Source: Escherichia coli 042 (GTDB lineage Bacteria; Pseudomonadota; Gammaproteobacteria; Enterobacterales; Enterobacteriaceae). From it: a DNA stretch of 64,000 nucleotides. The position numbers were made by a program, and so were the translations under genes. This document shows, piece by piece, positions 789 through 48,325 of the stretch; positions within the stretch are counted from its first letter, which is position 1; each line of letters opens with the position of its first letter. The notes below the pieces were generated by a model. The model saw only the letters and a list, made by a program, of their open reading frames with translations. It had not been told where the DNA came from and did no database searches. Location: the NCBI RefSeq assembly GCF_000027125.1, contig NC_017626.1; one strand, given 5' to 3'.

Positions 789-3700
789 TTAAGCCAGATG
801 CAGTGCTTCAAGACGACGAAGATCAAAGTCGTTTAATTCGTCGGTATAACTTTCGGTAATCGGTGCTGGCCAGTTGTTTGTCTCCAGGGCTTCGTTTATC
901 TGGCGTAGCGTCCGGCGATATTCCTGTCGACCAAGTTCCAGGAGTTCCTGCGAGGCTTCCACGACAGCCACCCAGTGATAGCCAGCATCTTTGTTGACGA
1001 AGATCCAGAAAAATTTTTCCAGGTTTGCCACATCGCAATACATTGCGGCGCTGAGGTGATAATCACGCTCAATAATTTCACGGTGCAGGCGATCTTTAAG
1101 TCGTTCCTGCCGCACATAACCGAGGCTGACTGACTTCACGTCGGCGCAAATGCTTTCGTATGGCAGCCGGATTTCGATATCAGGACGGACCCTGATTTCC
1201 AGCCCGGTTTCTTCATCAAACCCGAAATAGCTGATTTCAGATTTGCGATCCGGGTGGTTGAGTAGCCTTGCCGCATCAGTATTGTTTTGCAGTGCCGCGT
1301 GAATATTTTTTGCCTGTTCATACATATCCGGACTGATAAACGTTTTCCCGGCGTTTTCTTCTTGCTGGCGTTTTTGCCAGTCCTCCAGTGTCACCAGTTC
1401 CGGGCGAATTTTCCGTGCGATTTCGGTTAATTGCTCTTTCGTGCCACTGATGTTGTAAGGCAAAGATTTAGCACGTTCTTTTTTTGCCAGTTCTGGGTCT
1501 ACAGTTTCAATTTGATCCAGAAGTTGCTCCCGTGCTCCACTGGTTTTCAACAGAGGAGGGAGGCTTGCGTTGTATTCTTTAATACAGGCTTTCATTGCTG
1601 ATGCTGTGTGTTTTTCCCCCTCAGGGATACGCCGAAATTCCACCGGAAGCGAACCGTAAAGGATGCCTGTTTCTTCGGCCCCAGCACTTACAGACAGTGG
1701 CTGTATAAGAGTGCTGTTGTAGCTTTCGATCCACTCTTTCATCTGCTCTGGTGTCATCAGTGCTGGCAGACTGGCATTGTGTTTTTTAATGATGGCGATC
1801 AGTTCGTTAGAAGTAGTAACCACATATTCAGGAACCGGTACCGGAATGGCATATTCATCAGCGAATTTATCCGTTTCCAGAACATAGCTGTGAATGATCC
1901 TCCCACGCAGCAGTGCATCACTTTCCTCATTCGGAATAGTTCCGGCAATGTGCCGCCCGTGGTAATACATCAGGCTGATACGGGCATCCTTCAGCATCGT
2001 GCTGCTTATTCCGTTGGCGGAGTGATAAACCTCGTTCGGGAGGTTTTCATAGCGGCCTGGCTCGAAATATGACGGCCACATGATTTCAGTTGCTACAGGA
2101 GCTGACGCTTCACCAGTTTGATCACTGCAATCACGATGCGGATCGCTGCCAGCATTCTCATTGTGCGGATGTTCAGCGCCTTCCATTTCCACCGGATCTT
2201 TTTCCTTAGCTTCAACCTGATTCTCTTCATCGAATGTTTCCTGGTATGTTGCGTCGCCCATCACCGCGCCACAGTCAGGGCAGTTACTGCCGCCGGTCTG
2301 ACCGCAGGCGGCGCAGACTTTTTCCGGTTCCTGTTGCGCTTCTGGTTCATTTTGTCGCGAATTTTGGCCGTTTTGTTCCGATTTTCGGTCGTTCTGTTCC
2401 GTTTTTGGCTGATGCTGGTACACAGAATCGCGGGTCTGGATCCCCTTAACCCATTTCGGATCATTCGGGTCGCTAATCCCTTCAACAAATTCTCCGCGAT
2501 AGGCAGCCAGTAATTTGTCTGCATCAACAGAATTTACCTGTGACTGAGCATCCAGCGGCTGCGTGTCCTGATGATGTTCAGTTGCATCCGGTTCCACTGT
2601 TTCAGCCGTTGCCTGTTCATCTGCCATTGCGCCAGATGGTTGCGGTTTTTCTTCATCATTCTGTTTTCCCTCCTCTGTTACACGCTGCGGCATCGGGGCA
2701 GAGGAGCGACCGCAGGCAATATCCACGATTTCCGGATCAGGGTTGGCATGATCGGTTTCAGTCAGTACTTTGTTCAGATATTCTGTGACGTGCGCGGGGA
2801 TGACCTCGATCCCAATTGGTGCTTCTTTCACGGACGCAACCACGATGGCGCGAGAATAATCCAGCCCGCCAGGCATGGTGATGAATTTGTCGCGGAAAAC
2901 AGAAAAGGGCGGTTTATTTTCAGCGATAATTTCCTCAATGCGTTTAGCGTGTGCCGGATGAAGGTTATAGATGTCCACGTCCATTGAACGGGCCAGTACG
3001 CCAGTGGCTACGTCGCGCGCCAGTGACGTAAGATCGTGGACGAAACCTTCGCCGCGATCGGTGAGGTTCCCGCCGCCAGCATTAGCACCGGAAGCCGTGC
3101 GAGTGATGCGTGAAACACGATTACCCTTCATCCACTCTTTTGTCAGCAGTCCTCGATCGGTGTAGTCAGCGTTCAGGTATACTTCGAAAAAAGCAGTTAA
3201 CAGTCCCAAGTCTGAATTACCAGGATTAGGGAAAACTTTGTCAGTGTCACGAACCAGTTTGTGGAGATCGCGAATTTCCAGCGGGTCGAGCAGGCTGGTT
3301 TTGTGGGAAACAGCCAGGGCAGTAACAGCCGGTAGTTCTTCAGCCCGTGCAATGTGTAATGCCTGGAGTTCGCCGCGTGAAACGTGCGTTACCGGTTTTT
3401 CGCTGCCGTGTTGAGCAAGCCAACGAATGGGCAGTTCCTGGCCAGAAATTGGGAGTAGCATATTCTCCTCAATCTCAGTCATGTCTTCGCCGTTGACGTT
3501 GGTATTGCCTTGATAGTGAGCGTTGTCTGGTGCTGCTCCCGGTTTTAGTTCCCATGTCATGGAGTCTTTGCTGAGTTGATAGCGTTCACTCCAGGTAAAA
3601 TCGATCTCACCTTCAGCGGGCAGGTCATTAACGACAGGAAAATTCGTGGCAACAGCTTTAAAATAGCTGCTCAGTTTTTTACCTGACTTAACGATCTGGT

Positions 3701-4655: not shown

Positions 4656-5085
4656 AATTATCTCCATTTTCACAAATGAACTTTGTTGATGCGGTGCCTG
4701 GTGCCTCCAGGTGACGTTAACCAGTTAACAATTAACGCCGGATAATCCACCCATAACACTGATGCTTTTAACTGTTCCGCGTGCGCTTAGCCGCATTCAC
4801 CGCATCACAAAATTCACTTTAAAAAGGGCGGACATCAGCCGAACTTCAAGAAAAAACTGATGCCGCCAAGACTACACACAGCAATGTCGTTATTTACAAC
4901 CGGAGGCGCACTCCCACCATTTAAATTTAACAGACAAGACCGACTCTTTATGGATATCGGAAATGCGCCTTCGTGTTGCGCCCAGTTTTATTTCACCACC
5001 TCCGGGCTTCGGTGGTCTCGGCTATACCCCTACAGCGAGAGCTTGTGTTAACATTTCAATACCCTTACAGTTGAGAGTTATTGAT

Positions 5086-5574
5086 ATGTTGGATGTATTT
5101 ACTCCATTGTTGAAACTTTTTGCTAACGAGCCACTCGAAAGACTTATGTATACGATTATCATTTTTGGTCTCACTCTCTGGCTGATACCGAAAGAGTTTA
5201 CTGTCGCATTCAATGCTTATACTGAAATACCTTGGCTCTTTCAGATTATCGTTTTTGCCTTTTCTTTCGTGGTCGCCATTTCCTTCTCAAGATTGCGAGC
5301 ACATATTCAAAAGCATTTTTCATTACTACCAGAGCAACGAGTATTGCTTCGTTTATCTGAGAAAGAAATCGCTGTATTTAAAGATTTCCTTAAAACAGGA
5401 AATCTTATTATCACTTCTCCTTGCCGTAACCCGGTTATGAAAAAATTAGAACGGAAGGGCATCATTCAACATCAGAGTGATAGCGCAAACTGTTCTTATT
5501 ATCTCGTCACCGAAAAATACTCCCATTTTATGAAGTTATTCTGGAACAGCAGGAGTAGACGTTTTAATCGTTAG
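5086..5574 (+). CDS. sieB: Superinfection exclusion protein B (162 aa)
   Basis: Translation MLDVFTPLLKLFANEPLE... with hydrophobic N-terminal segments; divergent from kilR. Confidence 0.85.
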   Translation: MLDVFTPLLKLFANEPLERLMYTIIIFGLTLWLIPKEFTVAFNAYTEIPWLFQIIVFAFSFVVAISFSRLRAHIQKHFSLLPEQRVLLRLSEKEIAVFKDFLKTGNLIITSPCRNPVMKKLERKGIIQHQSDSANCSYYLVTEKYSHFMKLFWNSRSRRFNR

Positions 5575-5872: not shown

Positions 5873-6043
5873 CTTATCTCTCCCCTTAACGCCGGGTGGC
5901 GGAACTAACTGCTGCACTGCAAAATTTGAATCCCGCCGTCATGTTCATACGCCTCGGGCTGGCTACTTAACCCCTGACCACTGCCTGGTAACTCGAAGTA
6001 TTGCCCTGCGTTCTGTGGGGCGGGGTGGGTTGGTAGGTATATG

Positions 6044-6085
6044 ATGTACTTTGTGTTCATTGTTGTAAAGTACTTTAAGTACATT
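6044..6085. promoter_or_regulatory. Candidate left operator: inverted ATGTACT/AGTACAT repeats
   Basis: atgtact at 6044-6050 and agtacat at 6078-6084, plus aagtac direct repeat; same heptamer recurs twice between racR and ydaS. Confidence 0.35.
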
Positions 6086-6159
6086 TTGTGTGTAAAAAAA
6101 TGAGATGGGATAAAGTGAAGCACAAACCCGGAGGGGGACGCTACCGGATTTATGCTGGT

Positions 6160-6579
6160 TTAAGAGGCTTTTTGTTTTTTCTTTCGTGCTAACTCTTCGT
6201 AAATTGCATTGTACTTCTGTTTTTTCTCCTCAAGAGTTTTTAAAAGTTCATCTGTCTCACTGTCAGGGAGCTCGTCCAGAAGGTCAATGATGATTTTTTG
6301 TCTTGGATTTAACTCCTGATAGAAACGTACCTGTCCACTTTCTTCTGTATCCTCTCCCAAAAGATAGGTTGGTGTTGTTCCAATGAGTGTTGCTAATTCC
6401 CTTAATTTCTCTCGGCGAGGAATTGTTTCGCCATTAAACCATTTGCTAACCGCTTTTGGTGTTAATTTCATTCGACGGGCAATTTCTGCCTGCCTTCCAT
6501 GTTGTTCATAACCAGCGTTTTCACAGGCTAGCGCAAGCCTACTGGCGAACTCTTTACGCGCTTTATCTTCATGAACCAT
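6160..6579 (-). CDS. racR: Prophage repressor, HTH XRE family (RacR-like), 139 aa
   Basis: HTH motif (QAEIARRMKLTPKAVSKW); divergent from ydaS/ydaT as in Rac. Confidence 0.75.
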   Translation of the reverse strand: MVHEDKARKEFASRLALACENAGYEQHGRQAEIARRMKLTPKAVSKWFNGETIPRREKLRELATLIGTTPTYLLGEDTEESGQVRFYQELNPRQKIIIDLLDELPDSETDELLKTLEEKKQKYNAIYEELARKKKQKAS

Positions 6580-14207: not shown

Positions 14208-14595
14208 TTCCTTTCTCAGGACAAAAAAATACACGAGCATCCAGGAATACTCGTGGGACAACGTCCTTTGGATAGCAATTTGCGAGAGGGTGAAAAGTAG
14301 CGCGGTCGTCGGATTAAGACCGCGGGACAAAGTCCATGAAGAAGAATAAGTATCGGTCTCCTTCCGGAGACGAGTTGATATTACTAAGCTTTAAAAATGG
14401 TTTAAATCCTCAGATCAACCTTAATTTCAGATAAGGTTTATTTCATTTTCTCCGCGTCACATCCGACGCACATCACATCAGATAACACCACACAAAAGGC
14501 ATCTGCGGGTGTCTTTGACGGGGTGTTTTTTACGGGCCGCTGGTGGCCATTTTTTGTTTCCATTACACAGCGCCCGCATCTGCGAGGTGGGGGTT

Positions 14596-14811
14596 ATGAA
14601 ATCCATGGATAAGTTAACAACGGGTGTCGCCTATGGCACCTCCGCAGGCAGTGCTGGCTACTGGTTTTTACAGCTGCTCGATAAAGTCACGCCCTCACAG
14701 TGGGCAGCAATAGGTGTGCTGGGTAGCTTGGTATTTGGCCTGCTGACGTACCTGACAAACCTTTATTTCAAGATTAAAGAAGATAAGCGCAAGGCTGCGA
14801 GAGGTGAATAA
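14596..14811 (+). CDS. Pinholin, phage 21 S21-type, dual-start (MKSM), 71 aa
   Basis: [26 protein letters not shown]...; RBS GAGGTGGGGG; two start Mets three codons apart. Confidence 0.85.
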
Positions 14812-15308
14812 TGCCTCCATCATTACGAAAAGCCGTTGCTGCTGCTATTGGTGGCGGAGCAATTGCTATAGCATCAGTGTTAATCACTGGCCCAAGTGGT
14901 AACGATGGTCTGGAAGGTGTCAGCTACATACCATACAAAGATATTGTTGGTGTATGGACTGTATGTCACGGGCATACAGGAAAAGACATCATGCTCGGTA
15001 AAACGTATACCAAAGCAGAATGCAAAGCCCTCCTGAATAAAGACCTTGCCACGGTCGCCAGACAAATTAACCCGTACATAAAAGTTGATATACCGGAAAC
15101 AACGCGCGGCGCTCTTTACTCGTTCGTTTACAACGTGGGCGCTGGCAATTTCAGAACATCGACGCTTCTTCGCAAAATAAACCAGGGCGATATCAAAGGC
15201 GCATGTGATCAGCTACGTCGCTGGACATATGCTGGCGGTAAGCAATGGAAAGGTCTCATGACTCGTCGTGAGATTGAGCGTGAAATCTGTTTGTGGGGTC
15301 AGCAATGA
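14811..15308 (+). CDS. SAR endolysin (R21-type lysozyme), 165 aa
   Basis: N-terminal Gly/Ala-rich signal-anchor-release segment [18 protein letters not shown]; lysozyme body. Confidence 0.85.
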
Positions 15309-15769
15309 ACAGAGTAACCGCGATTATCTCCGCTCTGGTTATCTGCATCATCGTCTGCCTGTCATGGGCTGTTAATCATTACCGTGATAATGCCATTACC
15401 TACAAAGCGCAACGCGATAATGTGAAGGAAAAACTCAACCAGGCGACCGCAATCATTACTGACATGCAGATACGCCAGCGTGATGTTGCTGCACTCGATG
15501 CAAAATACCTGAAGGAGTTAGCTGATGCGAAAGCTGAAAATGATGCTCTGCGTGATGATGTTGCCGCTGGTCGTCGTCGGTTGCACATCAAAGCAGTCTG
15601 TCCGTCCGTGCGTGAAGCCACCATCGCCTCCAGCGTGGATAATGCAGTCTCCCCCAGACTGGCAGACACCGCTGAACGGGATTATTTCACCCTCCGGGAA
15701 CGACTGGTAATGATGCAGGCCCAACTTGAAGGTGCTCAGCAATACATAACCGAACAGTGTTTAAAGTAA
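15305..15769 (+). CDS. Spanin inner-membrane subunit Rz
   Basis: N-terminal TM, coiled-coil body, follows endolysin. Confidence 0.8.
15525..15710 (+). CDS. Spanin outer-membrane lipoprotein Rz1 (embedded in Rz, +1 frame)
   Basis: Lipobox LVVVGC, Pro-rich mature part, fully nested in Rz. Confidence 0.75.
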
Positions 15770-15906
15770 AATCTTAACTACAATATGATTCATTTTGATG
15801 ATTGTTTCATAAGGAACAGTGAAGTAAGATCTAAGATGAGTTAAATTTTATACAGTATAATCATAATGTTGCAGCAAGGTGGTTATAATTGAAAGAATAT
15901 TTAGAT

Positions 15907-17364
15907 ATGAATACATCTCATGTAAGAGTTGTTACTCATATGTGTGGGTTCCTGGTTTGGCTCTATAGTCTTTCAATGTTGCCACCAATGGTTGTAGCAT
16001 TGTTTTATAAAGAAAAAAGCCTGTTCGTTTTCTTTATAACTTTCGTTATATTTTTTTGCATTGGTGGCGGAGCGTGGTATACAACTAAGAAATCTGGTAT
16101 TCAATTACGTACCCGTGATGGGTTTATTATAATTGTAATGTTTTGGATTTTGTTTTCTGTTATTAGTGCATTCCCTTTATGGATTGACTCAGAACTTAAT
16201 TTAACGTTTATTGATGCTCTATTTGAAGGGGTTTCTGGAATAACAACAACAGGAGCAACTGTAATTGATGATGTTAGTTCATTACCTCGGGCATATTTGT
16301 ACTATCGGTCACAGTTAAATTTTATAGGTGGCTTAGGAGTTATTGTTCTGGCGGTTGCTGTATTGCCATTATTGGGTATTGGTGGTGCAAAGCTTTATCA
16401 GTCAGAAATGCCAGGGCCATTTAAGGATGACAAACTTACTCCCCGCCTGGCCGATACGTCACGGACACTTTGGATAACTTATTCTTTATTAGGTATTGCT
16501 TGTATTGTCTGTTATAGACTTGCAGGAATGCCTTTGTTTGATGCTATTTGTCACGGGATATCCACAGTTTCGCTTGGTGGTTTCTCAACTCATAGCGAGA
16601 GTATCGGATATTTTAATAACTATTTGGTTGAGCTGGTGGCTGGTTCTTTTTCCCTGCTATCGGCTTTCAACTTCACCCTTTGGTATATTGTTATTAGCAG
16701 GAAAACGTTAAAACCTTTAATCAGAGATATTGAACTTCGTTTCTTTCTGTTAATAGCCTTAGGGGTGATCATTGTTACCTCTTTCCAGGTCTGGCATATA
16801 GGTATGTATGACTTGCCTGGAAGTTTTATTCATTCGTTTTTTCTTGCCAGCTCCATGCTCACTGATAATGGTTTAGCTACGCAGGATTACGCAAACTGGC
16901 CCACGCACACGATAGTGTTTTTGCTGTTGTCAAGTTTCTTTGGGGGATGTATAGGTTCAACTTGTGGTGGAATTAAGTCACTTCGATTTCTTATACTTTT
17001 CAAACAAAGCAAACACGAGATAAACCAGCTTTCTCATCCCAGAGCGTTGTTGAGTGTAAATGTAGGAGGGAAGATAGTTACAGATCGTGTAATGAGGTCT
17101 GTATGGAGTTTCTTTTTTCTTTATACTCTCTTCACGGTGTTTTTTATACTGGTGTTAAATGGTATGGGATATGATTTTCTTACATCATTTGCAACAGTGG
17201 CTGCATGTATTAATAATATGGGATTAGGTTTTGGGGCTACTGCATCGTCATTCGGAGTGCTTAATGACATTGCAAAATATTTAATGTGCATAGCTATGAT
17301 TCTTGGTCGCCTTGAAATTTATCCTGTTATTATATTGTTTTCAGGTTTTTTTTGGCGCTCCTAA
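15907..17364 (+). CDS. trkG: Potassium uptake protein TrkG (485 aa)
   Basis: Polytopic membrane protein matching TrkG/TrkH; AT-rich relative to flanks. Confidence 0.85.
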   Translation: MNTSHVRVVTHMCGFLVWLYSLSMLPPMVVALFYKEKSLFVFFITFVIFFCIGGGAWYTTKKSGIQLRTRDGFIIIVMFWILFSVISAFPLWIDSELNLTFIDALFEGVSGITTTGATVIDDVSSLPRAYLYYRSQLNFIGGLGVIVLAVAVLPLLGIGGAKLYQSEMPGPFKDDKLTPRLADTSRTLWITYSLLGIACIVCYRLAGMPLFDAICHGISTVSLGGFSTHSESIGYFNNYLVELVAGSFSLLSAFNFTLWYIVISRKTLKPLIRDIELRFFLLIALGVIIVTSFQVWHIGMYDLPGSFIHSFFLASSMLTDNGLATQDYANWPTHTIVFLLLSSFFGGCIGSTCGGIKSLRFLILFKQSKHEINQLSHPRALLSVNVGGKIVTDRVMRSVWSFFFLYTLFTVFFILVLNGMGYDFLTSFATVAACINNMGLGFGATASSFGVLNDIAKYLMCIAMILGRLEIYPVIILFSGFFWRS

Positions 17365-42305: not shown

Positions 42306-42586
42306 TGAAAGATTTAACACTCAAATTTGCCGACAGGGCCGACTTTTCGGCCTTTATGGATAGCACTGGCTATTATGATGACGAGTCGATGCAGGATGAT
42401 ATTCTTATTGACGTGATAGGTAACGTGTACAAAGAAACCGGAGAACTGACTGAAGATGGCGAACCGGTATGTGTTAAGGAAGACGGATATTTTGTAAACG
42501 TGCGCATCATTAATGATTCGCAAATATCGTCATTATTCGATGAATACGTGGTTGCTGTTGAGCATCAACTTCGTGGCTGGATGTGA
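42305..42586 (+). CDS. Hypothetical acidic protein, 93 aa
   Basis: ORF between fibre genes. Confidence 0.45.
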   Translation: MKDLTLKFADRADFSAFMDSTGYYDDESMQDDILIDVIGNVYKETGELTEDGEPVCVKEDGYFVNVRIINDSQISSLFDEYVVAVEHQLRGWM

Positions 42587-42595
42587 GGAAGAAAA

Positions 42596-43636
42596 ATGGC
42601 TACATCGACAGTAATTCCTGATGACATCAAAACGCTAAAATCCGACGTTAGCAAATTAAAAAACGATCAAGGAAGCTACGCAACAAAATTATATGTAGAC
42701 AGCAAAGATGAAATCGTTGGTGACTGGTCTGCTTCATGGTATCAGCAGGTATTGCCAACTAGCGGAGCTATATTTGGGAGAAAACTCCGCTCAACTCACA
42801 GGACGGCAGGTGTTGAGGATGCGTATTGCGAACTATACCTCAAAAAATGGATAGACAGTCCAGGTAACGCAATGGCGCGCCTTAACCTGAACGATAACGG
42901 GACAAACATTTGCTGGGACTTTACCAACCTTTATGGCGGTACGATGATTTTTCCCGGTGACAGCGGATACCTCAAAATGGGTAACTGCCTTATGTCATAC
43001 AGCAAGCGTGGAAGTAACGCGCTTATTAAATTTGATTACACCGACACATTACAGATCAAATATGCCAATCATGGGTCAACCATGACATTAAACACACAGG
43101 GAACCGCTTATGCTGGTGTTACTGCTCAATTGTGGGGCAACACCAGCCGTCCTGTTGTTTATGAAGTCGGTGTTGATGGTGGCGCTTATATGTTCTATGC
43201 GCAGAAAAATACCGATAACACCTATATGTTAAGCGTTAATGGTGCATGTCATGCCACCGCATTTAACCAGCATTCCGACCGGGATCTGAAAGACAACATT
43301 CAGGTGATCGATAATGCAACCGACCGCATCCGTAAAATGAACGGCTATACATACACGCTTAAAGAAAACGGTATGCCCTATGCTGGTGTCATTGCACAGG
43401 AAGCTCTGGAAGCAATCCCAGAAGTTGTAGGTTCCGCAATGAAATATCAGGACGGTGCGAGCGGATCGGAAGGTGAAGAAGGTGAACGTTATTACACAGT
43501 AGATTATTCTGGTGTTACTGGCTTGCTTGTTCAGGTAGCCAGAGAGTCAGACGACAGAATAACAGCACTGGAAGAAGAAAACGCAGAATTAAGACAAAGA
43601 TTATCTGCAATTGAGGCGGCGCTTGCGTCTAAATAA
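42596..43636 (+). CDS. Tail fibre protein with C-terminal intramolecular-chaperone (S74-like) domain
   Basis: C-terminal chaperone-domain character followed by coiled-coil (TALEEENAELRQRL). Confidence 0.7.
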   Translation: MATSTVIPDDIKTLKSDVSKLKNDQGSYATKLYVDSKDEIVGDWSASWYQQVLPTSGAIFGRKLRSTHRTAGVEDAYCELYLKKWIDSPGNAMARLNLNDNGTNICWDFTNLYGGTMIFPGDSGYLKMGNCLMSYSKRGSNALIKFDYTDTLQIKYANHGSTMTLNTQGTAYAGVTAQLWGNTSRPVVYEVGVDGGAYMFYAQKNTDNTYMLSVNGACHATAFNQHSDRDLKDNIQVIDNATDRIRKMNGYTYTLKENGMPYAGVIAQEALEAIPEVVGSAMKYQDGASGSEGEEGERYYTVDYSGVTGLLVQVARESDDRITALEEENAELRQRLSAIEAALASK

Positions 43637-43642
43637 TATTAA

Positions 43643-43665
43643 GGGGCCGAGCGCCCCGTTTTATT
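43643..43665 (+). terminator. Intrinsic terminator after tail fibre gene
   Basis: ggggc-cgagc-gcccc then gttttatt. Confidence 0.5.
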
Positions 43666-43678
43666 GGGTAGGATGAAA

Positions 43679-43972
43679 ATGGATATAACACCTTTCCTTC
43701 ATGCGCTTTGTGCTGTGGCTGCGCAGCTACTGATTGGTCTTTTTACCGGGAACTGGGCTTACGGGGCGATAGCCGGTTGTACGTTCTTCATTGCGCGTGA
43801 ACACACCCAGGCAGAATATCGCTGGATCGAAATGTTCGGGCATGGCAAGCGAATGAATATGCCGTGGTGGGGCGGTTTTGATCCGCGTGCATGGGATGTG
43901 GCAAGCCTGATGGATTTTGCTGTGCCGGTGGTGGCGTGTCTGCTGGTCTGGCTGTTGGTTAATCGTGGGTGA
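43679..43972 (+). CDS. Small membrane protein of unknown function (97 aa), terminal moron
   Basis: RBS AGGA; two to three predicted TM segments. Confidence 0.5.
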   Translation: MDITPFLHALCAVAAQLLIGLFTGNWAYGAIAGCTFFIAREHTQAEYRWIEMFGHGKRMNMPWWGGFDPRAWDVASLMDFAVPVVACLLVWLLVNRG

Positions 43973-44323
43973 AAAAAGGTGAGCTGTATATGCAACGGAG
44001 GAAGAAACCCCGTTGCTGGAAGCCTGGAAAAAGTATCGGATGCTGCTGAACCGTGTTGATACATCAACTGCACCTGATATTGAGTGGCCTACGAACCCTG
44101 TCAGGGAGTAATCATTGGGATTATGCCGCAGAAACGTTGTATGCAATAACGTTCTGCGGTTGGCTGATGCACTTTCGAGAGTGCATGTATTGAATTATTT
44201 CCAGCTATTATCGATTTTACGTATTTTTTGCATGAGAGAATTTGTACCTCCTCCCAACAACGACCTTCCATGACTTTCCGGACTTCTGTGGGCCAGCGGA
44301 CGATGCTGCCCTCGGATGTTGTG

Positions 44324-45181
44324 CTAATTGGGTGATGACAAATCCTGTGTATGGGTGTTTCCCTTTGTGCGTGCGTTGATGCTGGTAACGGTGAACGTCA
44401 TGATGAACACAACCGCGAATAAGACGACAATCGTCGGAGCTGGTGCACTGTCGATAAAAAAGGACAACCAGACACCAGTCATTGACACTATTACCGATAT
44501 GCCAATCGCCAGTAGGAGCGCAATATGAAAGCGTTGTGTCAGGAGTACCGCAATGGCGCCAGGCGCAATGAGCAGAGAAATGGAGAGAATGATACCTACC
44601 GCTTTCAGCGTCGCCACAATGGTCAGAGAGACCATGCACAGCAGCCCATAATGCAGACATCTCGTATGCAAACCGCTTACCTGCGCCTGTTGATAATCAA
44701 AGCTGAACAGCAAAAAATCCCGCCATTTTACGCTAATAACAAGTGTAACCAACCCGGCAATAATCACCGTCTGGATTATATCGCCGATGGTTACCCCGAG
44801 CATGTCGCCGAAAAGAATATGGTCAAGATGTACGTCTGGTTTGACTGCAATATACAAGATCAGACCTGCGGCAAACATGCCAGAAAAAACAATCCCCATC
44901 ACTGTATCTTGCTTGATTCGGCTGTTGTCTTTCAGGTATCCCGTCGCCACCGCGCAGAATACTCCGGCGACGAATGCCCCTGTAGCCAGAGGTAACCCCA
45001 GAATCCAGGCAAGCACGATGCCAGGAAAAACCGCATGACTCATCGCGTCACCCATCAGTGCCCAACCTTTCAGGACCAGAAAGACCGACAGCAGCGCACA
45101 GGGTATGGAAACTACCAGTGAAATCAGCAGTGCGTGACTCATAAAGGTGAACTGCAGTGGCTCCAGTAATAATGCCATCAT
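44324..45181 (-). CDS. sitD: Mn/Fe ABC transporter permease SitD
   Basis: Polytopic permease; operon order sitABCD. Confidence 0.9.
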   Translation of the reverse strand: MMALLLEPLQFTFMSHALLISLVVSIPCALLSVFLVLKGWALMGDAMSHAVFPGIVLAWILGLPLATGAFVAGVFCAVATGYLKDNSRIKQDTVMGIVFSGMFAAGLILYIAVKPDVHLDHILFGDMLGVTIGDIIQTVIIAGLVTLVISVKWRDFLLFSFDYQQAQVSGLHTRCLHYGLLCMVSLTIVATLKAVGIILSISLLIAPGAIAVLLTQRFHIALLLAIGISVIVSMTGVWLSFFIDSAPAPTIVVLFAVVFIMTFTVTSINARTKGNTHTQDLSSPN

Positions 45182-46035
45182 GAGCGATCCTCCAGCGCTT
45201 TATGCGCACGCCGACGATTTGCCAAAAGCCCATGGGTGGGCGCAAATACAAATGCTAAAAGAAACAGCAGTGTCTGCGCCACCACGATGATTCCACCTGT
45301 CGCGCCGTCCAGAAAGTAACTGACCCACGCGCCGAGGAAACTGGTTACACTGCCAATAGTTACAGCAATTATGAGCAGGCGGGGAAAATGATCGGTTAAC
45401 AACCATGCTGTTGCACCGGGAGTCACCACCAGACAGATCACCAGAAAGGCACCAACCGTTTGCAGCGCCGCAACGGTCGAAACCGACAGCAGGGTGAAGA
45501 AGAGGATTTTTAATCTGCCCGGATGCAATCCAATAGCACGAGCGTGATTCTCGTCGAAAAAGGTCACCATAAGATCTTTCCATTTGAAAAAAAGCACGAT
45601 GATCGAGAGAATGCCAATGATAGTGAGTTGCAGGATATCCGCCGGATCGATTGCCAGAATATTGCCCAGGACGATGGTCTGAATGTTCACGGATGTCGGG
45701 TTCAATGACACCATAAACAGCCCCAGGCCAAAAAAGGAGGAGAAGATCAGGCCGATGATGGCATCTTCTTTTAAGCGAGTGCGTTGGTTAAGAAACAGCA
45801 TGCTGCCCGCTGCCAGTCCGCCGGAAAAGAAGGCTCCCAGAGAAAACGGAAGCCCCAGCATATATGCCCCCGCAACACCCGGGACAATAGAGTGCGACAG
45901 CGCATCGCCAATCAGCGACCAGCCTTTTAGCATCAGATAGCATGACAGGAAAGCGCAGAGACCGCCGACCATCGCCGAGACCCACATCGCATTGAGCATA
46001 TATTCATAGCTGAAGGGTTCCAGTAGCACGTTCAT
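45178..46035 (-). CDS. sitC: Mn/Fe ABC transporter permease SitC
   Basis: Polytopic permease paralogous to SitD. Confidence 0.9.
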
Positions 46036-46859
46036 CTTGCTTCCCCCTGCACCGCTGACGGTCGATGTGCCACAAAAGGGTGTTCATCGTCAGTAATAAT
46101 GCTTTCTTCCGAGCCGTTAAGTGTGACATGGCGCAGTACGCCGCTAAAAGCCAGCTCCAGGTTCTCGGCTGTAAAAGTGGTGTCTGTCGGCCCGCTTGCC
46201 AGGACGGTGCCTTTGACCATGACCGTATAATCGCAAAATGTCGTGACTGAGCCGAGATTGTGCGTTGAGACAAGCATCGTCTTGCCTTCCGCGCGTAACT
46301 CCCTCAACAGGCTGATGATTTTCGCTTCGGTTTTCACATCAACGCCGGTAAAAGGTTCATCCAGCAGGATCACATCACCCTGCTGTGCAATCGCTCTCGC
46401 CAGAAAGACGCGTTTCTTTTGTCCACCGGAAAGCTCGCCGATTTGTCGATGGCGAAAATCCACCATATCGACACGTTCCAGCGCATCGGTGACAATCTGA
46501 CGATCCCTCTTTTTGGCTATACGCAACATACCCATGTGCCCATAGCGGCCCATCATCACCACATCTTCCACTAGTACAGGAAATGACCAGTCAACCTCTT
46601 CTGACTGAGGGACGTAGGCAACCAGGTTTTTCTGTAGCGCCTGTCGCGTGGGAATACCCAGAACAGATATCTTTCCGCTGGTCAGACGGACAAATCCCAT
46701 AATCGCTTTAAACAACGTCGATTTTCCGGAACCGTTTACCCCAACCAGAGCGGCAATAGATCCACTTGGTACTGTGAAGGATGCATCGCGCAGTGCTGTG
46801 TGCCCGTTACGCCAGGTGACAGTAACATCATTAACGACAATGCCCGCAGATTGCATCAT
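46032..46859 (-). CDS. sitB: Mn/Fe ABC transporter ATP-binding protein SitB
   Basis: Walker [13 protein letters not shown] signature LSGGQKKR, Walker B ILLDEP. Confidence 0.9.
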
Positions 46860-47773
46860 TATTTCTCCCTTTTCCCGGCTTTAATTCCCTGTACCAGCGT
46901 ACTGGTAGTAACCTTCAGAAGGTCGATATACGTAGGTACCGGGCCGTTTTCTGTGCTCAGGGAATCGACATAGAGTACACCGCCGTAGTGCGCGCCGGTT
47001 TCACGCGCAACCTGACGCGCTGGTTTATCGGAAATCGTACTCTCGCTAAAGACTGCCGGGATATGATTTTTCTTCACCATATCAACAACCTTACGTACCT
47101 GCTGCGGCGTGCCTTGTTGATCGGCATTAATCGGCCACAGATAAAGCTCTTTTAGCCCCAAATCGCGTGCGAGATAAGAAAAAGCCCCTTCACTGGTGAC
47201 CATCCATCGCTGATTCTCAGGGAGTTCAGCAATCTGCTTACGCAGGGGGGCAAGGGTTTGGGTAATCTTGGCTTTATAAGTATCGGCATTACGTTGGTAG
47301 GTTTGTGCATTTGCCGGATCGTATTTTATCAACGCATCACGAATATTATCGACATAAATCAGAGCATTATCTGGCGACATCCAGGCATGGGGGTTAGGTT
47401 TGCCCTCATAGGGTCCTTCGGTGATCCCTACTGGCGTCACACCCGAAGAGACAATTACTTCTGGAACCCCATTGAGATGTTGGTAAAAGCGTTGGAACCA
47501 CAATTCCAGATTCATACCATTGGCGAGAATCAGTTGTGCCCCCTGCGCACGTTTAATATCTCCAGGGGTAGGCTGATACTCATGAATTTCTGCACCAGGC
47601 TTGGTTATGGATGAGACTTCTGCAGCATCTCCAGCCACGTTTTTGGCCATATCCGCGATGATGGTAAATGTTGTAATGACCTTGAATTTTTCAGTTGCAC
47701 TTGCCTGAAATGCGATCGAGCAGGTGAGGGCGAGGCACCCCAAGAGCATGGTTACTTTTTTTATTGAGTGCAT
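46859..47773 (-). CDS. sitA: Periplasmic metal-binding protein SitA
   Basis: Signal peptide; cluster-9 substrate-binding protein family. Confidence 0.9.
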
Positions 47774-47805
47774 AATTTAGTACCTATAGTGAGCAAAATT
47801 AGAAA

Positions 47806-47827
47806 AAACATAGCAACAGCTATGTTT
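47806..47827. promoter_or_regulatory. MntR box (perfect palindrome AAACATAGC-AACA-GCTATGTTT)
   Basis: Palindrome 33-54 bp upstream of sitA start; matches E. coli MntR operator consensus. Confidence 0.75.
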
Positions 47828-47845
47828 TATAGCATAAGCCATGCA

Positions 47846-47866
47846 AAATGAAAATGATTATCATTA
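47846..47866. promoter_or_regulatory. Fur box-like site
   Basis: aatgaaaatgattatcattag resembles GATAATGATAATCATTATC. Confidence 0.6.
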
Positions 47867-48325
47867 GCGGTTGTGGGCCCAACACAGGGATTAGGTTGTT
47901 TCCTGCTGGCGATGTGGTATTGAGGAAAAAATTAGGGCAGCTATTAGGCTTTGAAATGACTTTATGAGGAGAATTGTTGATGGCAAAAATGGGGCAAAGC
48001 GCTGCAAAAGGGGCAAAAAAGGGGCAAAAAAAGAGTGGGTTATCGTAGCTTATTGTTGTCGCTGATGATGTTTAACACATTGAAAAATAAGTAAAATACT
48101 TATGAGTCAGAGAGTTGTGATTTTTGCCCTTACTTGTTCAGATTGTATTGTTCTTTCTTACTAATTTCTTGATTTTGCGACATTTAAAAGCGACTCAATT
48201 CGTTATATGGCATCAGAAGAGTATGCGTCATGCCGGAAAGCCCAGCATAAGAAATCTGATATAAAAACTGTGGCGTGTATGGTACGGATTAGAGGGGAAA
48301 ATGTCAGCACATTTGCGAAATGAAT

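Follow-up and report, generated by a model that had tools for sequence, protein, structure and literature searches.

The classical moron is a unit of promoter, gene and terminator, exemplified by lom and bor of phage lambda and by gp15 of HK97. Together with Imm of T4 and SieA of P22, gp15 of HK97 also represents the small inner-membrane exclusion proteins, which are dispensable for virion assembly. Other exclusion genes lie right beside the gene of the receptor-binding protein and travel with it, for example llp of T5 and cor of phi80, N15 and T1, whose lipoprotein products act on FhuA from the periplasmic or outer-membrane side and block it. Between tailspike and att, P22, Sf6 and CUS-3 have room for conversion genes (gtrABC, oac and neuO), and in T7 and T4 the fibre genes are followed by holin genes (17.5 and t, respectively).

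Here, we describe p97, a gene of 97 codons that follows the tail fibre genes in a prophage of Escherichia coli 042, and compare it with these systems. The DNA analysed, hereafter the window, is a stretch of 64,000 nucleotides from contig NC_017626.1. p97 is carried by 1899 of 5426 complete E. coli genomes (35%), with a median of two copies per carrying genome and up to seven, and it is also found in phage 21 and many natural lambda-like phages, yet no characterised relative could be detected. Its conservation is unusually high for a phage accessory gene, and in otherwise unrelated phages it consistently closes the receptor-binding module. Our preferred reading, which we put forward tentatively, is that p97 encodes an accessory, host-directed inner-membrane protein that excludes superinfecting phages at the genome-entry or inner-membrane step.

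The p97 frame and the fibre genes before it

The p97 frame lies on the plus strand at 43679..43972, from ATG 43679 to TGA 43972, and an AGGA ribosome-binding site can be read from the sequence at 43671..43674, 5 nt before the ATG. In the ORF listing the frame is open as far as TTG 43664; because the homologues in the alignment all start with M-D-(I/L)-(S/T)-P, the start was set at ATG 43679, which gives 97 codons. A collection of 5.8 billion proteins contains 575 homologues of p97, and an exhaustive search gave 349 clusters at 50% identity. Conservation at the protein level, with invariant residues, reaches Alpha-, Beta- and Gammaproteobacteria, and identity is about 60% from E. coli to Comamonas and Aeromonas. 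The 80 E. coli prophage loci compared carry 53 distinct alleles, which differ from the allele in the window mainly synonymously (dN/dS mostly about 0.05-0.3). The ribosome-binding site, the homologues and the dN/dS values bear out the 97-aa ORF proposed in the initial annotation, and p97 is evidently a genuine gene under purifying selection.

The recombination joints found at both edges of the ORF (see below) would also be expected of a chance or decaying frame that is kept only as DNA, as a recombination linker between cassettes. However, the excess of synonymous over non-synonymous changes among the alleles, the conservation of the protein with its invariant residues from Alpha- to Gammaproteobacteria and the confident AlphaFold model all speak against this; dN/dS rules it out, and we regard it as effectively refuted. 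Two antisense ORFs on the minus strand (43727-44146 and 43759-44073) were also rejected, since the substitution pattern fits the plus frame instead.

Three genes on the plus strand lead up to p97. The first (39924..42305) encodes a side tail fibre of 793 aa with a phage_tail_N domain, Ala-rich repeats and a phrog_1419/5939 C-terminal domain. Long tandem repeats rich in Ala, Ser, Thr and Lys lie at 40219-40900 within this gene and are the source of numerous spurious ORFs that overlap one another on the two strands; the RefSeq annotation of strain UPEC132 shows the gene broken into a pseudogene and fragments. The second (42305..42586) encodes p93, a small acidic alpha/beta protein of 93 aa (phrog_1361, related to phrog_18574), which is a frequent upstream companion of p97. 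The third (42596..43636) encodes a distal tail fibre of 346 aa (phrog_4563) that ends in a Peptidase_S74 intramolecular chaperone (PF13884, E = 4.8e-14). With the stop codon of this fibre gene at 43636 and the ATG of p97 at 43679, p97 does follow the last fibre gene, as had been proposed.

The initial annotation also placed a hairpin terminator between these two genes. A GC-rich hairpin, GGGGC-CGAGC-GCCCC followed by GTTTTATT, is present at 43643..43657 on the plus strand, but its stem has only 5 bp and its local fold is no better than that of shuffled sequence (z = -1.0). The upstream genes differ among the 80 E. coli loci. In 35 of them, the 346-aa fibre gene and a hairpin-bearing spacer of about 42 nt precede p97; in 37, the preceding gene codes for a shorter S74 fibre (227-234 aa) and stops at a distance of 9-25 nt, mostly 10; and in seven, p93 ends 12-18 nt before p97, as in phage 21. 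Because the spacer of about 42 nt occurs only with the 346-aa fibre upstream, the hairpin is assigned to the cassette of that fibre, and with its T-run it is best viewed as a weak terminator-like element at the 3' end of this upstream cassette. A consensus scan, which an atypical promoter might escape, found no sigma-70-like promoter in the 42-nt spacer before p97, and the two weak promoter-like sites within 42500-44400 are no more than shuffled sequence gives.

The sit operon and the right end of the prophage

The stop codon of p97 and sitD are separated by 351 bp, in agreement with the roughly 350 bp of non-coding DNA described before, but this interval is not simply non-coding since it holds the stub of a Tfa gene. 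The stub (43992..44111, plus strand; a RefSeq pseudogene) consists of the last 36 codons of a Tfa (Caudo_TAP) gene and the stop. Its positions 43992-44108 encode the last 36 residues of Caudo_TAP and match PF02413 with E = 2.4e-16 at profile positions 95-130 of 131, so that what is left is a C-terminal remnant. Phage 21 keeps only part of it, with homology extending to 44048. Because the Tfa stub remains right after p97, the arrangement suggests that an older stf-tfa pair gave way to a block in which the stf C-terminal domain is followed by p93, the fibre gene and p97. Between the stub and the end of sitD, two inverted repeats lie within 44126-44186, namely CCGCAGAA...TTCTGCGG and ATGCACTTTC/GAGAGTGCAT. 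Both repeats (44126-44159 and 44167-44186) fall below the terminator criteria of the scan; they may serve as terminators for the converging late and sit transcripts.

The sitDCBA operon for an iron/manganese transporter, as annotated by RefSeq, occupies 44324..47773 on the minus strand, between p97 and the right attachment site. In phage 21, p97 is likewise followed directly by sitDCBA, in the same order and inside the phage genome. Apart from a deletion in phage 21, the window and phage 21 are 95-97% identical over 43670-47969, with 97.5% identity across 44304-47969. Furthermore, sitABCD has been reported on 70% of natural lambda phages (PMC6969025). From this comparison, the sitDCBA operon of the window belongs to the prophage, as cargo. 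Just past sitA, a segment of 214 bp (47775-47988) shows 85% identity to sit-carrying plasmids.

The interval 47774..48134 is the rest of the prophage before its right junction. In E. coli genomes with ttcA next to uspF, similarity to the window begins no earlier than about 48134 (partial matches from query position 361), and the host genes uspF, ompN and nifJ/ydbK lie beyond this point. The initial annotation had taken p97 as the prophage end, which does not hold: about 4.2 kb of further prophage DNA, including sitABCD, follow p97, and host DNA begins at about 48134. Many automated IMG/VR prophage predictions (L010, L015, L020, L022 and others) end exactly 3 nt after the p97 stop codon, which indicates that prophage callers take p97 as the last viral gene and lose the sit operon. 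For annotation, p97 thus marks the end of the fibre module and not that of the prophage, sitABCD should be counted as phage-owned, and automated callers often stop too early, at p97.

The prophage as a whole is Rac-like. Besides RecE, SieB, Lom and a TrkH/TrkG-type gene, it has a complete lysis cassette at 14509-15769 that consists of a P21-type holin, a SAR-lysozyme and Rz. Directly after Rz, the gene for a TrkH/TrkG-type potassium transporter (15889-17364) forms a second cargo gene, in the late region. A superinfection exclusion protein of the SieB family is encoded at 4963-5574 (Pfam E = 8e-31), so the prophage already has at least one dedicated exclusion gene.

p97 in other phages, plasmids and chromosomes

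p97 is normally the last cistron of a block of receptor-binding (tail fibre or tailspike) genes, and most of its relatives lie 10-18 nt behind the preceding late gene or overlap it. In the P22-like phage JEP4, p97 starts in overlap with the stop codon of the tailspike gene and stands alone between that gene and att/int. The myovirus phiHAP-1 has it after tfa and before the sheath gene, and a Comamonas prophage has it after gpJ. An SSU5-like phage-plasmid carries a four-gene block identical in make-up to that of the window, and in the virulent jumbo Aeromonas phage ACP1 an intact p97 is flanked by two fibre-like genes. For distant metagenomic members, the contigs were too short to give gene context, and an IMG/VR scan seeded with a Comamonas sequence returned mostly E. 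coli prophages again.

The gene also moves on its own. Homology between the window and phage 21 resumes at 43670, just ahead of the ribosome-binding site, homology to the SSU5-like plasmid ends at 43920, and homology to JEP4 is limited to 43679-43921, that is, to p97 alone. These breaks exactly at the edges of the gene argue that p97 is a single-gene mobile unit and a frequent recombination joint. In the virulent T1-like Escherichia phage HC6 (L130), a truncated, unannotated p97 stub (3465-3620) follows an S74 tailspike gene that is still a full-length ORF although p97 has decayed. The stub is evidence that fibre cassettes probably carry p97 between temperate and virulent phages, and that decay can follow.

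Some copies lie outside fibre modules. In five Aeromonas genomes, representing four named species and a second A. rivipollensis strain, a standalone p97 occupies one chromosomal locus (L004, L096, L097, L099 and L102; about 6001-6309) between a pirin gene and a gene for a RIO1-type kinase, and no phage genes were found near it. In A. rivipollensis, where the neighbours were annotated with Pfam, two lipid A acyltransferase genes follow the RIO1-type kinase gene; this may reflect a link to LPS or a coincidence. In Leclercia, Silvania and Halomonas, p97 lies in islands, in one case beside an AAA_15/AbiEii-like ATPase, and on a P1-like plasmid it is found among accessory genes near hot and phd-doc, far from fibre genes. 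Thus, p97 looks like an accessory protein able to benefit a cell alone, and the standalone copies together with the decay in virulent HC6 argue that it is no component of the virion or of its assembly.

The same distribution bears on a possible role of p97 as partner of the fibres, in which it would be a membrane anchor that, maybe together with p93, tethers or matures the side fibre on the cytoplasmic side of the membrane. The order of fibre C-terminal domain (phrog_5939/1419), p93-like protein (phrog_18574/1361) and p97 is kept in Escherichia and in the Pantoea and Comamonas prophages (with phrog_18574 in the latter two), the block seems to have replaced an stf-tfa pair of which only the tfa stub is left, and the p97 loop is predicted to face the cytoplasm, where fibres fold. 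However, neither p93 nor any fibre gene accompanies p97 on the Aeromonas chromosome, on the P1-like plasmid or in Leclercia and Halomonas; elsewhere the receptor-binding protein encoded before it is an unrelated one, for instance a tailspike or a Tfa-type fibre. S74 fibres bring their own chaperone, HC6 has a full-length S74 spike ORF in spite of its decayed p97, and we know of no membrane step in fibre assembly. We consider a fibre partner improbable.

The predicted membrane protein and its likeness to described systems

Residues 1-96 of p97 align with positions 1-96 of the 97 in the phrog_1443 profile (E = 5.8e-59), and each of the 69 diverse relatives examined matches this profile too; the only other PHROG matched by p97 and these relatives is phrog_34165, a fragment family of PHROG 1443. 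p97 is thus an ordinary member of a common phage family without a characterised member. Because PHROG 1443 is annotated as "unknown function", membership tells nothing about what p97 does. One UniRef entry names the family protein 'Ybl63', and the phage 21 record and genome announcement list p97 only as a "putative membrane protein".

Searches for described relatives agree with the earlier view that the protein is undescribed and place it only in the PHROG catalogue. No Pfam or NCBIfam family scored above threshold for p97, including the Pfam exclusion families of Imm/SieB type, and no Pfam family did so for the 69 relatives, among which, as in p97 itself, GtrA and acyltransferase domains are absent. 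Four family members have a sub-threshold match to the N-terminal transmembrane region of PhoR, which we attribute to composition. PADLOC defence models gave no match at E <= 1, a profile search of PDB sequences gave nothing below E = 0.96, and Foldseek of the p97 model against BFVD gave nothing with E < 1. A literature search by accession, family name, 'Ybl63' and peptide motifs found no paper on the family.

The AlphaFold model, built on an alignment of 37 sequences, has three helices (residues 4-23, 26-53 and 74-96; mean pLDDT 92), and the hydropathy profile agrees in showing three hydrophobic helices, so that the transmembrane helices predicted in the initial annotation are found by both methods. 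In 69 relatives with 30-55% identity to p97, R40, E41 and W72 are invariant, and H8, Q44, A45, E46 and P83 are nearly so; closer relatives show hardly any variation along the stretch AREHTQAEYRWI...G.GKRxNMPWWGGFD.R.W...D as a whole. The conserved polar motif (H8, R40-E41, Q44-A45-E46, W72, D79, P83) lies within or adjoining a loop of 36 residues. Lys and Arg together average about 6 on the side of the N-terminus and this loop and about 0.6 on the side of the TM1-TM2 turn and the C-tail of about 3 residues, a charge bias that predicts an N-in, C-out orientation. In the topology predicted solely by the positive-inside rule, the N-terminus would be inside and the loop with the cluster of H8, R40-E41, Q44-E46 and D79 would lie at the cytoplasmic face. 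Almost nothing of the protein would then be left in the periplasm, and if the predicted topology is right, p97 must act inside the inner membrane or from the cytoplasmic side of it. The near absence of predicted periplasmic exposure argues against receptor masking of the Cor or Llp type. Neither a lipobox nor a basic n-region was found in p97, in which Cys11 lacks both conservation and the surroundings of a lipobox; a lipoprotein or receptor mask was rejected for want of both a lipobox and a periplasmic domain.

A small protein with three predicted transmembrane helices, co-transcribed or translationally coupled with late structural genes to judge by gene arrangement, could also act late in the lytic cycle, either as a holin- or antiholin-like regulator of lysis timing or by limiting the loss of progeny on the debris of infected cells. 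The intact copy in the virulent jumbo phage ACP1 and the holin genes that follow the fibre genes in T7 and T4 are in line with this. However, p97 lies outside the complete P21-type lysis cassette elsewhere in the prophage, and it does not end in a charged tail as class I holins do; their orientation, N-out, C-in, is also opposite to that predicted for p97. Conservation as strong as that of p97 is atypical of holins, and the standalone chromosomal copies in Aeromonas are stably kept. The holin reading was rejected because of the separate lysis cassette and the wrong topology and tail, and a late lytic function in general seems unlikely to us, to the same degree as a fibre partner.

Somewhat more probable, but still doubtful, is an action on glycans or LPS, in which p97, at the cytoplasmic face of the inner membrane, would be a small enzyme or would inhibit a conserved lipid-carrier-dependent step of O-antigen, capsule or lipid A synthesis, would alter the receptor of the neighbouring fibre or spike, and so would be a functional equivalent of gtrABC or oac. 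The position of p97 between tailspike and att/int in JEP4 fits this idea, as do its often glycan-directed neighbours (S74 fibres and a pectate-lyase-like or colanic-acid-type spike), the invariant H/R/E/Q/E/D cluster at the membrane interface, and the two lipid A acyltransferase genes and the RIO1-type kinase gene beside the chromosomal copy in Aeromonas. However, these genes in Aeromonas do not share an operon with p97, towards which they are transcribed convergently, and the protein shows homology neither to GtrA nor to acyltransferases nor to any other family of enzymes. Nearly identical p97 alleles stand behind three different fibre types in E. coli, which argues that p97 does not co-vary with receptor specificity, and p97 occurs in phages that plate on K-12, which lacks O-antigen.

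We return to superinfection exclusion, which we rank first, ahead of the glycan or LPS function and then, on a level with each other, the late lytic function and the p93 fibre-module partner. As an accessory, host-directed protein, p97 would be dispensable for building virions. Its target would be a host component that Proteobacteria have in common, reached inside the inner membrane or from the cytoplasmic side, and its action would shield the infected or lysogenic cell from other phages. Exclusion would take place at the genome-entry or inner-membrane step and not by masking a receptor in the outer membrane. The high conservation across Alpha-, Beta- and Gammaproteobacteria argues for a conserved host target or, alternatively, for intrinsic catalysis. 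In favour of exclusion are the predicted membrane fold with its polar motif, the place behind receptor-binding genes in unrelated types of phage and the standalone copies; the small inner-membrane exclusion proteins and the exclusion genes linked to receptor-binding genes named at the outset are established precedents. Some points weigh against exclusion. Because p97 is tightly coupled to late genes, it is predicted to be expressed late in lytic growth rather than in the lysogen, an uncommon pattern among exclusion genes of prophages; the coupling and the lack of a detected promoter count against an exclusion gene expressed in lysogens. No PADLOC defence model or Pfam exclusion family matches p97, the prophage already encodes SieB, and the very high conservation and the invariant His/Arg/Glu/Asp cluster could just as well be those of a small envelope-biosynthesis enzyme or inhibitor.

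In a bolder proposal, to which we give a lower probability than to exclusion itself, PHROG 1443 would be a new class of small inner-membrane effector, perhaps a miniature enzyme or specific inhibitor, that uses its invariant, cytoplasm-facing His/Arg/Glu/Asp site to reprogram a conserved envelope or genome-entry step. If true, about one third of E. coli genomes would carry a broad, previously unrecognised mechanism of exclusion or conversion, one that travels with receptor-binding-protein cassettes among siphoviruses, podoviruses, myoviruses, jumbo phages and phage-plasmids of Proteobacteria. Control of exclusion or of the envelope by p97 would bear on host-range engineering, on phage therapy against E. 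coli lysogens and on how tail-fibre cassette swaps are interpreted, and the family is a reasonable experimental target.

Among the described systems, T4 Imm, P22 SieA and HK97 gp15 share with p97 the size class and the predicted membrane location, and the standalone copies suggest that p97 is dispensable for virion assembly too. It differs from them in that no sequence or profile similarity was found, in its far stronger conservation and invariant polar cluster, and in its place inside a late fibre block, where no promoter of its own was detected. Like llp of T5 and the cor genes, p97 adjoins receptor-binding protein genes, but it does not co-vary with fibre type, and its product differs from Llp and Cor by the missing lipobox, the absence of homology and the minimal predicted exposure to the periplasm. 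The tailspike-att slot filled by gtrABC, oac or neuO corresponds to the slot in JEP4 in which p97 is the only gene, but p97 is a single protein of 97 aa of no known enzyme type and has no homology to GtrA, GtrB or acetyltransferases.

The comparison with the classical moron, the term used in the initial annotation, holds in part. Without a detected promoter, and in most relatives with gaps of 10-18 nt or overlaps to the preceding late gene, p97 is not a classical moron; it is not terminal in the prophage, is packed onto a late gene, and the hairpin upstream of it is part of the neighbouring fibre cassette. What it shares with the classical moron is the behaviour of a mobile single gene after the fibre genes: p97 moves singly, with homology breaking at its borders, is variably present, lies at the end of the late operon, and has been inserted as a discrete unit, as its edges in JEP4 (43679-43921), phage 21 (from 43670) and the SSU5-like element (to 43920) indicate.
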